From: an uncultured bacterium
GTDB lineage: Bacteria; Babelota; Babeliae; Babelales; Vermiphilaceae
Length of the DNA: 64,000 nucleotides
Direction: 5' to 3'
Assembly: GCA_963713925.1 (NCBI GenBank)
Contig: OY970212.1
Span: 416,001-480,000 of the forward strand
Shown: in pieces, positions 2,031 to 61,312 of the stretch
Layout: every line of letters starts with the position of its first letter
Numbering within the stretch: the first letter of the stretch is position 1
The notes under the pieces: generated by a model
The model's input: the letters and a program-made list of their open reading frames with translations, nothing else
Databases searched by the model: none
What the model was told of the DNA's origin: nothing
Position numbers and translations under genes: made by a program

Positions 2031-2383
2031 GGGGGCGTACTGGTTTCGACGGGTTTTTGGTCGGGACGAGAGCATGCCGAGCGTTGACTGAGTGCTCGTT
2101 AAACAATTGGTTCAACAATAAGTGCAGAACACGCACCAGCTGCTGCCTAATAGGCAGTAACCTTGATAGAAAAGCGCGCTTATCCGTTTGACTATCAAGT
2201 ATTTACCCAGATAAGACTGTTGCATCAAAGTCATATAGCCTAATAGATGCAGCAAAATTATAGGCTGTCTTAGAACATCAGGCCGCTTTTAGCCAGATTT
2301 CTTCGTATCAATAAAAGCTAAGCATGAAGCGCTTGTGTCGATTGATTATTCGGACATGGGTTCAACTCCCATCGCCTCCACCA
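2031..2383 (+). ncRNA. ssrA: tmRNA; tag reading frame (A)AEHAPAAA* at 2124-2150
   Basis: 5' GGGGGCG..TGGTTTCGAC, 3' T-arm ATGGGTTCAACTCCCAT-CGCCTCCACCA with G3-U pair; follows smpB; tag ends in AA-stop. Confidence 0.96.
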
Positions 2384-2624
2384 GTCTTCGCTTATCCGGG
2401 CCTTCCGGCTCGGAAAGCTACGCCTGGCTTGCGCCATATCAAATGACTTTATCCAAAAAAGAGCGAAGACCGGTCCCAAACGAAGGTAGCGGAGTTTGGG
2501 GGAAAATACTGTCCGGTGAATTTTAACATTTCCTGAGGTTTTTGCTTCGAAGTAAGAATGTAGCCTGGACTATGCTTGGAACCCAAAACTTCGCTTATCC
2601 TTCCGGCTCGGCAAGCTACGACTG
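2384..2624 (+). repeat. tRNA-3'-appended structured element, tmRNA copy (core to 2571, nested hairpin 2472-2501, partial duplicate 2589-2624)
   Basis: Shares gctacgcctgg, gcgaag, tgtccgg and cctgagg..cttcgaagtaagaa.gtagcctggact with the copies after tRNA-Leu/Tyr/Gly. Confidence 0.8.
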
Positions 2625-2658
2625 AACGGATCTTCCTTTAATCCAAAGAAGAGGTGTT

Positions 2659-3360
2659 ATGATTTCATCACAAAAAAGCAGCACGTTGTTACTTGGGTTG
2701 GGTCTTTCATTTGTAACCTTTTGTGATAAGCAAGAAATACTGACATGGCCTCAGAATGTCCACGTTTGTTGTTCCGGAATTATACGCACAGAAAAGAACA
2801 TTATTCGAACAGATGAATTGCAGGATATTACTATCGTTTATCCTCAGTATGACCCTGAATGTGACCTCCTGAATCAAGAAATAGAAAAAATTGTATGTGC
2901 AGAGCTGCACAACTTTACTGCTACGTGGCAGAAAGAATATGAGGAAAATGCTTCACCGGATTCTCCGTGGCCACCGTTTCATTTCGCGTTTTCATGTTCA
3001 TATCGAGTTGCACATGAAGATAATGAACTGATAAGTATATTACTCAGATTTGAGCGTTATATTGGAGGAGCTCATGGCCAGCGTACATTCAAATCATTTA
3101 ATTATGATCGTAAAAATAACAAAATGATTACTATTGAAGAACTAGTGTCAGAAGCATTGTTGCCCACATTGAGTTCATTATGTTCACAATCGTTGGAGAG
3201 CCAAGGAATGGAGATATATTACAAAGAAGGCATTGAACCGGTATATGACAATTTTAGGCACGTAACCTGCACTCCGGATACGATAACTATTCAGTTTGAT
3301 GAATATCAAGTCTGTTGCTATGCAATGGGCGCACCGAGTGTCACCATTGCACAGCAATGA
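2659..3360 (+). CDS. DUF3298/DUF4163 (RsiV/PdaC-like) exported protein
   Basis: YIGGAHG..FNYD..ITIEEL and C-terminal FDEYQVCCYAMGAPSVTI signature. Confidence 0.75.
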   Translation: MISSQKSSTLLLGLGLSFVTFCDKQEILTWPQNVHVCCSGIIRTEKNIIRTDELQDITIVYPQYDPECDLLNQEIEKIVCAELHNFTATWQKEYEENASPDSPWPPFHFAFSCSYRVAHEDNELISILLRFERYIGGAHGQRTFKSFNYDRKNNKMITIEELVSEALLPTLSSLCSQSLESQGMEIYYKEGIEPVYDNFRHVTCTPDTITIQFDEYQVCCYAMGAPSVTIAQQ

Positions 3361-3392
3361 TTATCTTCTGATTTTTGCGGATATTTGCTTTT

Positions 3393-3722
3393 TTAGTTTC
3401 GGGATATGTCTTTTTTTTGTATTATGAGACACGACTTTCCATTTTTGTCGACCGTTTCATTGATGGTTATGAGATCATTTTCTTTGATATCATTAACTTG
3501 AGTTTTCGATGATGCGTAAGCATTTTTGTATCCTATTTCCATTCTTGACGCATTTGGAAGATGTTGAAAAGGTTCTTTGCCTTGGGCATAGATTGTAATC
3601 TCAGATATATTATCCTCAAAATTGCCTCTTGCTATAATATCTTTGCCTGTGTTGTTTTTCACTGTAATTGCTAGAAGTTGGCTTGCGCTTATCAGAGCTA
3701 TGACGGCTAGTACTTTTTTCAT
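3393..3722 (-). CDS. Hypothetical exported protein
   Basis: MKKVLAVIALISASQLLA signal peptide, AAGGAA upstream. Confidence 0.7.
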   Translation of the reverse strand: MKKVLAVIALISASQLLAITVKNNTGKDIIARGNFEDNISEITIYAQGKEPFQHLPNASRMEIGYKNAYASSKTQVNDIKENDLITINETVDKNGKSCLIIQKKDISRN

Positions 3723-3825
3723 AAAATTCCTTATTTTCATTGAAACTTCATTTTCCTGATAGGATATTAAAAATTAATTTGGTTATGCAAGTGATCGAGA
3801 AAAATTAAAGACGACCAAGGGTATT

Positions 3826-5439
3826 TTAAAATATTTCTTCAATCAATTGATTAATATCAGTCTGACTAACAACATCGCCCATCGCGCGATAAAACTGTTC
3901 ATCATATTCGCGCGTTTGCACGACAACCGGCATGGCGACGGCATGGCCCATGAGTAGCGCCTGCTTTTTAGTGTCCAATGTTGCCAACACGGTGCGCAAA
4001 CTCGATGAGTTGTTAACACCATTGAGGACAGCTTGGATATCTTTTTCATCATTCAATTGCGCCACAATTTTGGTGCCGATCTGGGACAAAATTTCCTCAT
4101 CAATGCCCGATGGTCGTTGGTCGACGACAAGGAGAGAAACATAATATTTGCGCATTTCACGTGCAATAGTGCCAAAAATGGTCTGGCGCGCCGCGTGCGA
4201 ATTTAAAAATTTGTGTGCTTCCTCAATGGTGATCATGAGTTGCACTGGTTTGTCTTCTTCTTTTTGTGTGCCGAGAAACTTTTCAGTGCGTTCGATATAT
4301 TCCGCATGAATGCGTCGTGTGATGATGTTTGCAATCAGAAGATAGACAAATGATGAGGTGAAGTTTCCAAACTCAACCACAATGCTGATACCTCGATTGA
4401 TATATTCCATCATCTGATCGATCACGGATATTTCTTTGTATGCGCCGCCCGAACTTGGTCTGATAAAATCAAGCCGCTCGATGCGCTTCAATTTACGATA
4501 CAATGCTGCCACTGATTCTGGATGGGCACCCAAATTTTGTGCAAATTCTTTAATCTGTTCGCCTTGCGAGAGCAATATTTCAAGCCAATCGCGTTTGTAT
4601 TTTGCCGCAATTAAATAGGCTGCTTCAAGCGCTGTTGAGTGCAGATTGAGCTCATCTTGCAATGATAAAATATCTTCAACGCCGATTTGATTATATGCAA
4701 TCGTTAGCTCCACATCGGGGCTTGCGCCGCGTCTGCGTGTTGATTCAGGATCAAGAGAAAAGATGGCAACTTTTCCCGGAAACAACGTTTTGAGACCTTT
4801 GACAAAGTTGAGGGTCTTTCCTTCTTTTCTCGCTTGCAGCCCATATTCGCTGTGCATATCAAAAATGAGATTGACTGCTTTTTTGTTTTTAATGAGTCCG
4901 GCAAGCACGAGTCGCGTTAAAAATGTTTTTCCCGTCCCCGTTTTTCCAAAGATGCCGTTGCTGCGTTCAACGAGTCGTTCAAGATCAAGGCAGACTGGCG
5001 TGTTCATATCAAGCGGACAGCCGATATTGAAATAGCGCTTGCTTGCCTCATGCTCGTCGCCAAAAATACGGGCGACATCTTTTTTGTCTGCTTCAAAAAC
5101 GGTTGAAAAATGAGGAGGCACTGTTTTGACCGGGCTCGGATTGGATTGATGCGTCATCATGAGCATCGGTTTTAAGCGTGCAGTCGCGTAGATGTCTTTT
5201 GAGCGCAACACGCGCGCAAGTAGTTTTTCTTGCTCAGTTGGTGGAAACAGCAAAATGTCAGGATGGGCCACTTCCAGCGAAAGATCGGTAATGAGTGAGA
5301 AAAAAGTGTGCTCACTACCGACGATGGAAACAAATTTTCCCGTCTTGATAGTCTCCGGACTGACTTCGGAATTCACCCGCATGACAAAGCCATCGGTGAG
5401 TGATCCGCTAGTGATGTGGCCAAGAAGTTTTTTTTGCAT
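3826..5439 (-). CDS. HerA-like ATPase (HAS barrel + DUF87 P-loop)
   Basis: GIFGKTGTGKT, IFDMHSEYG, IEEAHKFL, IAREMRKY, DQRPSGID motifs. Confidence 0.88.
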   Translation of the reverse strand: MQKKLLGHITSGSLTDGFVMRVNSEVSPETIKTGKFVSIVGSEHTFFSLITDLSLEVAHPDILLFPPTEQEKLLARVLRSKDIYATARLKPMLMMTHQSNPSPVKTVPPHFSTVFEADKKDVARIFGDEHEASKRYFNIGCPLDMNTPVCLDLERLVERSNGIFGKTGTGKTFLTRLVLAGLIKNKKAVNLIFDMHSEYGLQARKEGKTLNFVKGLKTLFPGKVAIFSLDPESTRRRGASPDVELTIAYNQIGVEDILSLQDELNLHSTALEAAYLIAAKYKRDWLEILLSQGEQIKEFAQNLGAHPESVAALYRKLKRIERLDFIRPSSGGAYKEISVIDQMMEYINRGISIVVEFGNFTSSFVYLLIANIITRRIHAEYIERTEKFLGTQKEEDKPVQLMITIEEAHKFLNSHAARQTIFGTIAREMRKYYVSLLVVDQRPSGIDEEILSQIGTKIVAQLNDEKDIQAVLNGVNNSSSLRTVLATLDTKKQALLMGHAVAMPVVVQTREYDEQFYRAMGDVVSQTDINQLIEEIF

Positions 5440-60485: not shown

Positions 60486-60560
60486 CGCTATAAAGCGACG
60501 GGATTCCCATAGCTTTGATTTGAAAATTGCCAAGTATAAATGGAACTTGGGTATAAATAT

Positions 60561-60636
60561 GCGGGAATAGCTCAATTGGTAGAGCGGCAGCCTTCCAAGC
60601 TGTAGGTTGCGGGTTCGAGTCCCGTTTCCCGCTCCA
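60561..60636 (+). tRNA. tRNA-Gly(TCC)
   Basis: Cloverleaf, TCC anticodon, U73, CCA. Confidence 0.97.
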
Positions 60637-60781
60637 GGCTTCACCCATAAAGGGTTACGCCTGGCGCAGCCAGTTGCTAAGGTAGAGCGGTCTATATTGA
60701 TAGAACAAGCGTGAAGCCTGTCCGGCGAAGTTTAAAGCTTCCTGAGGTCTTACTTCGGAGTAAGAACGTAGCCCGGACTGG
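60637..60781 (+). repeat. tRNA-3'-appended structured element, Gly copy
   Basis: Aligns to the Leu and Tyr copies. Confidence 0.88.
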
Positions 60782-60789
60782 AACAACAA

Positions 60790-60910
60790 CCCGCTCATTT
60801 CCTTTAGAAATGGCTGGGCAGGCCAGCAAAAAAGGTTTTGAAATTTTGTTAATATTGAGAGTGCAATAGCGTAGGCTGTCACGCCATAGCTCTTTGAGCG
60901 ACGGTTGACT
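60790..60910 (+). repeat. Orphan copy of the Thr-type variant element
   Basis: ggctgggcaggccagcaaaaaag.ttttga shared with 61176-61205. Confidence 0.7.
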
Positions 60911-61050
60911 ATGTTGTTAGGCGTCTTCATTTTTAGCCTGTACGAGTAAAGAAATCCGGATATTTATTCCGGTCTGCATTTGAAAATTTTTTAAGAAACC
61001 AGGATTTATCGATTAATGAATACCTGGTTTCTGTTTGAAATTCTAGGAGC

Positions 61051-61126
61051 GCCGGTGTAGCTCAGCTGGTAGAGCAACTGATTTGTAATCAGTAGGTCGT
61101 TGGTTCAAGTCCAATCACCGGCTCCA
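61051..61126 (+). tRNA. tRNA-Thr(TGT)
   Basis: actga-tt-TGT-aa-tcagt, CCA. Confidence 0.97.
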
Positions 61127-61312
61127 GCCTTCGCTATATCACCCAAGCAGTACTGCTTGGGTCCGATAGAGCTTCGGCTGGGCAGGCCAGCAAAAAAGAT
61201 TTTGAGATATTATCGATTGCTGGCAGTAAAAAGCGATGGCTGGGTCCCAAAATGTAGTGAAACGAAATTTTGGGTTATATGCTGTCTCGCCATGGCCTTG
61301 GCGGACGCGGAC
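61127..61312 (+). repeat. tRNA-3'-appended element, Thr-type variant with two nested hairpins (61141-61164, 61242-61275)
   Basis: ccagcc..ggctgg and agccttcgct..agcgatggct pairings at the same positions as in the other copies. Confidence 0.75.

Follow-up and report, generated by a model that had tools for sequence, protein, structure and literature searches.

Hairpin elements anchored at the CCA ends of tRNA genes in a Babelales genome and their likely partner, a small GIY-YIG nuclease

Introduction

Ssn nucleases (cd10448) are small, single-domain GIY-YIG proteins of ~80-100 amino acids (aa) that are encoded beside their own orientation-specific hairpins, the NTS/SRM repeats, and gene-less copies of these repeats occur genome-wide (Chenal et al. 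2025, PMC11893778). SsnA binds its cognate hairpin, with the cut a few nucleotides to the 5' side. Cleavage is sequence-specific on single-stranded DNA (ssDNA) and does not affect double-stranded DNA or RNA, and the authors suspect a mobile-element origin (PMC11893778). Bacterial SLX1-like proteins form a sparsely characterised sister clade of Ssn (PMC11893778, supplementary file 5). In the REP/BIME/REPIN repeats with RAYT and the GTAG-/CGTC-tagged repeats, a short imperfect hairpin is arranged in inverted doublets and nested-module mosaics, with an ssDNA-type recognition (Di Nocera et al. 2013, PMC3733652). Here we describe a family of hairpin elements that begin directly behind the encoded CCA of tRNA and transfer-messenger RNA (tmRNA) genes. 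Five of them lie in a stretch of 64,000 nucleotides (nt) from an uncultured bacterium of the Vermiphilaceae (GCA_963713925.1, contig OY970212.1, positions 416,001 to 480,000). They are probably gene-less leader copies of a tRNA-anchored cassette, a selfish DNA element that was likely spread to CCA ends by an Slx1-like GIY-YIG nuclease.

Insertion sequences (IS) of the IS200/IS605 group insert directly 3' of a short target without duplicating it. The CCA element likewise lies 3' of a short target without a duplication, and its target may be recognised through pairing to the basal nucleotides of a terminal hairpin; it differs in having neither an HUH transposase nor a defined right end, and its nuclease is not known to join DNA. 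The free-standing GIY-YIG homing endonuclease SegB of phage T4 also has a tRNA gene context and promotes its own spread, but it cuts a 27-bp site with a T-arm motif and homes between phage genomes, and no hairpin leader or dispersed gene-less copies are described for it (PMC2330249). Rickettsia palindromic elements, hairpin repeats of ~100-150 nt, are likewise dispersed through small genomes, those of host-associated bacteria (described in part in PMC3733652); they are not known to be anchored at CCA.

Results

Five elements in the window

The window is the whole stretch of 64,000 nt, that is, G000:C1:416001-480000, where G000 denotes the genome that holds it (a single contig, C1, of 1.32 Mb). 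ARAGORN places the ends of the host genes at 2383 (tmRNA), 18422 (Leu), 60219 (Tyr), 60636 (Gly) and 61126 (Thr-TGT). An earlier reading of the window, made from the sequence only, had placed the start of each element at the base directly 3' of the encoded CCA, and these gene ends agree with it at all five genes. We also read the trailers of the Ile, Ala, Thr(GGT) and Trp genes of the window and found no element there, as that reading had stated. Measured from the start to the end of the last hairpin, the elements are ~188 (tmRNA), 143 (Leu), 133 (Tyr), 143 (Gly) and 186 nt (Thr) long. The copies at tmRNA and Thr(TGT) are divergent subtypes with nested extra hairpins, which refines the earlier description. 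The order of parts is CCA, H1, P2, spacer, far arm and H3, where H1, H3 and the small P2 are hairpins, and the features are as follows.

2031..2383, +: tmRNA gene, host with encoded CCA end (ARAGORN, Rfam)
2384..2571, +: element after tmRNA, GT subtype; H1 closed by CCA/TGG (TGG 2425-2427) with a nested hairpin inside, P2 2425-2436, far arm 2463-2470, inserted hairpin, H3 2510-2571
2588..2625, +: second, incomplete copy of the 5' hairpin module (read from sequence)
18336..18422, +: tRNA-Leu(CAA), host (ARAGORN)
18423..18565, +: full gene-less element after Leu, GG subtype; H1 18420-18450, P2 18448-18458, far arm 18496-18505, H3 18504-18565
18585..18670, +: secondary mosaic of related hairpin modules (read from sequence; resembles 60378-60500)
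60134..60219, +: tRNA-Tyr(GTA), host (ARAGORN)
60220..60352, +: full gene-less element after Tyr; P2 60243-60253, far arm 60292-60301, H3 60300-60352
60378..60500, +: secondary mosaic of related hairpin modules; 87% match over 94 nt to the tRNA-Gly(GCC) trailer
60561..60636, +: tRNA-Gly(TCC), host (ARAGORN)
60637..60779, +: full gene-less element after Gly; P2 60662-60672, far arm 60711-60720, H3 60719-60779
60810..60910, +: decayed additional copy with P2 (60815-60825) and an H3-like hairpin
61051..61126, +: tRNA-Thr(TGT), host (ARAGORN)
61127..61312, +: element after Thr(TGT), GC subtype; H1 with nested hairpin, P2 61179-61189, far arm 61232-61242, inserted hairpin, H3-like hairpin 61283-61312

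The secondary mosaics at 18585-18670, 60378-60500 and 60810-60910 are nested in, or lie 3' of, the main elements. The final 16 nt of each host gene are present once in the genome, except for Gly, where a second gene gives two occurrences; thus, as already proposed, no tRNA fragment was duplicated. A search of Rfam gave zero matches for the elements at the gathering score over the whole window and nothing convincing at E<=5 within 60217-61420, so that a known Rfam RNA family was rejected as an explanation for want of a covariance-model match. One soil-metagenome contig (n=1), possibly from the source sample, covers 60287-60487 without any difference.

Anatomy of the element

The sequence behind the CCA opens with two variable bases, XY, and CTTCGC; beyond a loop come GCTACG, then the bases complementary to Y and X, and finally TGG. 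Together these form H1, whose closing pairs join the tRNA's own CCA to the TGG. In the alternative helix P2 (TGG-loop-CCA), the same TGG can pair with another CCA that lies a few bases downstream. Beyond the spacer, the far arm GCGAAG-Y'X'-TG pairs with CA-XY-CTTCGC, that is, with CA and the first 8 nt of the element, and H3 comes next. When elements were parsed without a filter on these bases and without dereplication, the near pairing held for X in 90/92 and for Y in 76/92 elements, the misses being mostly T.C, which is G.A on the opposite strand; the far pairing held for X in 46/47 and for Y in 44/47. The Gly element carries a triple compensatory change that involves the 5' arm, its H1 partner and the far arm. 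In an alignment of 18 sequences pre-filtered for pairing, the covariation score of both helices was above that of 500/500 shuffles and collapsed when the helix was slid. The covariation that had been noticed in the long-range helix is thus found again, both in the far pairs and against the shuffles.

H1 read on the minus strand and H3 read on the plus strand are one hairpin with a GTA/GAA-type internal loop; the earlier reading had noted GAA/GUA internal loops, one readable on each strand. On the minus strand, the internal loop of H1 is of the GTA/GAA or GAA/GAA form in 59 of 73 distinct (dereplicated) modules. Terminal loops of the GNA/GNNA type follow the same orientation: in H1 they were observed in 10/35 cases on the minus strand and in 1 on the plus strand, and in H3 in 4/11 on the plus strand and 0 on the minus strand. 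DNA stabilises loops of this type much more strongly than RNA does (PMC13037366). Since the two hairpins are an inverted pair of one hairpin, and one transcript cannot show both purine-rich forms, we infer that the element is recognised as ssDNA. With G.A pairs outside the folding model, the DNA fold of the element has a z of -3.6, and the RNA fold of tRNA-Gly with its element is unremarkable (z -1.7). By eye, we found no convincing promoter, IHF site or kink-turn in the spacer.

A genome-wide family behind CCA

We defined the family by descriptor searches and pair counts in place of a covariance model. Reading the trailers of all 39 tRNA and tmRNA genes of G000 by eye, we found an element at 20/34 tRNA/tmRNA genes that encode CCA, compared to 0/5 genes that do not (p=0.02), and a variant hairpin behind 2 more of the 34. 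A descriptor blind to tRNAs gave 28 matches in the genome, 22 of which follow a CCA. With the same descriptor, five shuffles gave 1-3 matches each and none after CCA, and we thus conclude that the family is beyond chance. Seventeen of the 28 matches abut the end of a tRNA or tmRNA; 5 lie <=700 nt behind one, 4 are intergenic and 2 are in coding DNA. CCA directly precedes all 17 abutting and all 4 intergenic matches. Targets outside tRNAs include the CCA at the foot of a hairpin of another repeat family, and short modules are also nested in one another and lie behind the CCA of other hairpins.

A full element at G000:C1:610130-610287 (L118) stands behind a non-coding stretch that ends in AGTGCCGCCA and has no Rfam match; in a relative (L126), the same ending precedes an element with a nuclease gene. 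The stretch before the L118 element may be an unknown tRNA-like RNA gene. The trailers of tRNA-Ser(GCT) at 405331 and tRNA-Gln(TTG) at 840074 in G000 are variants in which the CCA is followed by a perfect hairpin with a GCA or GAA loop, and hairpins like these precede nuclease genes at L141 and L142. Behind the element of tRNA-Ser(GGA) lies a core motif like that of signal recognition particle RNA (G000:C1 ~1074330-1074380, minus strand). A GTCATCC-type hairpin at 569190-569212 of G000 has been a target of the CCA element.

A cassette with an 80-aa GIY-YIG nuclease

A full cassette is found outside the window at tRNA-Thr(CGT) (G000 1103083-1102680, minus strand). It consists of the tRNA with its CCA, the hairpin element, an open reading frame of 80 aa that begins 19 nt after H3, and a further hairpin copy. 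Compared to seven other full copies, among them those at Leu, Tyr and Gly of the window, its element has an identity of 77-86%. A full copy with an intact gene, which the sequence-only reading had suggested looking for, is therefore present in the same genome. The product is a lone GIY-YIG domain (PF01541 at 66 bits), and the GIY-YIG catalytic residues Y5, Y17, G19, R27, H31 and E63 are kept in >=100/104 relatives. The predicted model reaches a predicted local distance difference test score (pLDDT) of 96.6, and the best-matching folds are UPF0213 and the catalytic domains of Slx1/HIGLE. In databases the relatives are named 'putative endonuclease' or 'GIY-YIG nuclease family protein', and NCBIfam has no family for the 80-aa nuclease. 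Hairpins flank the gene on both sides in G000 and mostly upstream only in other genomes. In a profile search in which stops were read as X, there was no nuclease remnant behind 22 other G000 sites and no second copy of this nuclease clade in G000. In the gene-less copies of G000, similarity fades ~20 nt after H3, near the position of the cassette's start codon.

Other types of mobiliser were considered in G000. No reverse transcriptase was found there. An HUH/Y1 transposase was rejected, as the sole match is a short, decayed Y1 (IS200-type) fragment of 30 positions far from any element (G000:C1:735855-735944). A tRNA island borne by an integrase was also rejected, as the two tyrosine recombinases do not lie beside elements and no tRNA 3' end is duplicated. 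An earlier proposal had been a non-autonomous, CCA-targeted mobile element with its mobiliser encoded elsewhere; the part that named a GIY-YIG enzyme now has a likely candidate at tRNA-Thr(CGT), and no usable candidate for a reverse transcriptase or an HUH enzyme was found in G000.

The nuclease clade is linked to tRNA genes across genomes

We collected 80 nuclease loci from Alphaproteobacteria, Babeliales, Patescibacteria and others; totals refer to all 80, and junctions were read for 48/80. A tRNA or tmRNA lies on the same strand <=600 nt upstream of the nuclease gene in 69/80 loci; 4 of the others were too short and in 7 none was called. The linked loci span 19 tRNA types and tmRNA. In G000 and its relatives, the nuclease clade is linked to a tRNA in 19/29 cases, compared to 0/15 and 0/19 for two other small GIY-YIG clades. 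Each of the three clades has its own type of flanking hairpin. Furthermore, in a comparison of 40 relatives, a set that shares at least two loci with the 80 above, at least 5 motif matches (a cut-off set post hoc) were present in 16/23 genomes with the nuclease and in 3/17 without it.

The other small GIY-YIG clades have repeats of their own. Genes of a second, UPF0213-like clade (G000:C1:141650-141931 and 353976-354257; L003, L002) are flanked by inverted hairpins of another family (CCGTTCG...TCGAA) that matches neither the SRM pattern nor the CCA element, and this pairing recurs in relatives. A GIY-YIG gene at G000:C1:104371-104679 (L004) has GTCATCC-type hairpins on its flanks and is probably part of a true Ssn/SRM pair.

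Sites are filled, empty or differently filled

In the Tyr-Gly-Thr-Thr cluster of 28 relatives, the spacer after Tyr is <=25 nt in 14 and that after Gly <=35 nt in 22. Descriptor elements in these relatives occur at Tyr in 6, at Gly in 3, at Thr(TGT) in 1 and at Thr(GGT) in 2; the Thr(GGT) site, filled in these 2 relatives, is empty in the window. At tRNA-Ala(GGC) of Rhizobium we read 29 junctions from the best 30 matches of 81 genomes, a sample biased to filled sites. One element type, with its gene intact, broken or deleted, is present at 20 of them; another element with another nuclease occupies 2, a hybrid occupies 1, and 6 have no element. The same site can thus hold a full cassette, another cassette, deletion derivatives or nothing. 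The hybrid of the two element types is L212. The cassette at L206 follows a duplicate of the tRNA 3' half, at a distance of ~18 kb from the intact gene, and was probably displaced by an integrated island. The comparison of filled and empty loci that had been called for therefore shows orthologous sites that are filled, empty or differently filled, and we conclude that the element is mobile and not a conserved tRNA trailer.

No sequencing run contained half of the sampled words, and the runs give evidence neither for nor against a transcript or an excision. In the RNA run, reads lay on tRNA genes only and came from other organisms, and the joints were those organisms' tRNA clusters.

Comparison with Ssn/SRM and REP/RAYT

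Like an Ssn nuclease, the 80-aa protein is a single GIY-YIG domain within the size range of Ssn, lies beside its own hairpins, and has gene-less copies of them across the genome. It differs in belonging to another clade: it has 31% identity to the CGTC-flanked protein of G000, and in a tree the tRNA-linked clade is apart from the CGTC-flanked clade with a support of 100/99. The CGTC-flanked clade presumably corresponds to Ssn. Pseudaquidulcibacter saccharophilus (L084) has the cassette, yet Supp. Data 4 gives NO for it in each of the four SsnA/cd10448 columns, and of four other species two have SsnA homologues and are uninformative, Rhizobium pisi is mixed and one is unlisted (PMC11893778); this single, indirect test suggests that the nuclease is outside the SsnA/cd10448 clade. 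The SRM pattern is present in the nuclease flanks at 0/29 loci compared to 3/15 for the CGTC-flanked clade, and its 3 matches in G000 include none at tRNAs. Targeting of tRNA CCA is specific to the CCA element in this comparison; the word tRNA is absent from the main text on Ssn (PMC11893778).

With REP/REPIN the element shares the inverted doublet, formed by H1 (minus) and H3 (plus), as well as nested modules and a putative recognition of an ssDNA type. It differs in that no RAYT gene accompanies it, the Y1 fragment being the only match, and in that the terminal base pairs of its hairpin are formed with the tRNA's CCA. Di Nocera et al. do not mention GIY, and tRNA appears there only in names of genes for tRNA enzymes (PMC3733652). 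Because the flanks lack SRM, a species with the cassette is negative for SsnA and there is no RAYT, we place the CCA element outside both Ssn/SRM and REP/RAYT. It works like these systems, is a member of neither, and is distinguished by its base-precise anchoring at tRNA CCA. We found no description of the clade, the motif or the targeting of tRNA ends in a literature search that left subscription journals largely uncovered and supplements 13-14 of PMC11893778 outside. The earlier suggestion of an undescribed system is therefore to be narrowed: small GIY-YIG nucleases with hairpin repeats are known from Ssn/SRM, and what we did not find in print are this clade, its motif and its targeting.

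Other genes of the window include a HerA-like helicase (3826-5439, -), two adjoining genes for WD40 beta-propellers (43916-48552, +) and an LVIVD-repeat gene (37733-40333, -).

Discussion

We consider it likely that the five sequences are leader copies, without their gene, of a selfish cassette that the Slx1-like nuclease helped to spread. A GIY-YIG domain only cuts, and the joining step must therefore come from the host. In the mechanism that we propose, the nuclease, whose gene would be transcribed from the tRNA promoter, would bind the hairpin on ssDNA exposed at highly transcribed tRNA genes and nick near it, by analogy with Ssn and its SRM hairpins. In the CCA element, H3 is preceded on its 5' side by the far arm, whose pairing spans the CCA junction. 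Through host repair, the element would subsequently be copied or ligated behind a CCA that is base-paired by the element's own TGG or by the TG of the far arm. A more specific version can be put forward tentatively and is rather doubtful. According to it, the 80-aa nuclease, bound to H3, would cut the junction between CCA and element that the long helix holds near H3, the TGG of the freed element would splint the 3' end of a target CCA, and host ligase or polymerase would complete the insertion. This would be a transposase-free mobile element whose target is set by pairing and could be reprogrammed, and the smallest known self-spreading nuclease system.

It is also conceivable, if unlikely, that only the whole cassette moves in the manner of a homing endonuclease, that gene-less copies are relics from which the nuclease gene was deleted, and that the structure is mainly a binding site of the nuclease or an mRNA leader. 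The truncated and gene-deleted derivatives in Rhizobium, at the same site as full cassettes, fit such relics, as does the point near the start codon at which similarity ends in G000. However, neither a nuclease remnant at the 22 other sites nor a second copy of the clade was found; short modules nested in one another and behind the CCA of other hairpins also speak against it. It seems improbable to us that the hairpins are moved by another enzyme (HUH transposase, reverse transcriptase or tyrosine recombinase) or simply by host recombination, with the GIY-YIG gene as a passenger. Insertion 3' of a short motif without duplication does resemble IS200/IS605, and in some genomes with motifs no nuclease was found; nevertheless, G000 offers no reverse transcriptase, only the Y1 fragment and two recombinases that are not beside elements, and the three GIY-YIG clades each come with their own hairpin type.

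A host-serving tRNA-trailer RNA, which would pair with the CCA of the precursor and so control 3' processing or stability, or would be a discrete small RNA, is in our view very improbable. Predicted folds pair the CCA of Leu, Tyr and Thr with the trailer (p 0.8-1.0; 2/3 bases for Gly) and leave the acceptor stem intact, and the covarying long helix can form in a transcript. Yet the same tRNAs have spacers of 1-35 nt in many relatives, the filled tRNAs differ between genomes, the purine-rich form of H1 is on the non-transcribed strand, copies are found at non-tRNA sites, and there is no Rfam match. The trailer RNA that the sequence-only reading had offered as an alternative is not supported, given orthologous sites that are often empty and motifs that are mirror images on the two strands.

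Several observations weigh against spread by the nuclease or against the ssDNA recognition that it would involve. The Rhizobium cassettes have no defined right end or target duplication, unlike an IS, and no cleavage, excision or recent insertion was seen in a comparison without a close relative of G000, whose copies are 13-23% diverged from one another. The domain itself cuts only and leaves joining to the host. As for the DNA strand, the main subtype in G000 has its purine-rich H1 loops on the plus strand, and the wobble pairs of the long helix favour neither strand (6 vs 4). The covariation alignment had been selected for pairing beforehand. The predicted precursor RNA folds bury the CCA, and the element may possibly have a side effect at the RNA level. 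The association with the nuclease is affected by kinship: 39/69 linked loci are at tRNA-Ala, largely in related Alphaproteobacteria, and neither these nor the 40 relatives, with their post hoc cut-off, are independent. Lastly, one relative has 10 motifs and no nuclease found, and another has 4 nucleases and 0 strict motifs.

If spread by the nuclease is right, a widespread and unnamed class of 80-aa 'putative endonucleases' would gain a role, and the idea behind Ssn, a tiny GIY-YIG protein with a cognate hairpin, would extend to the sister Slx1-like clade. A new nuclease specific for sequence and structure of ssDNA would also be a candidate tool. This family makes the spread of hairpin repeats in the absence of a transposase open to testing, since its CCA target, junction and pairing partners are known at single-base resolution and since culturable Rhizobium and Bradyrhizobium contain intact cassettes. 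For the element itself, anchoring behind CCA would be a way to colonise a motif common to all tRNA genes that encode CCA without damaging them.

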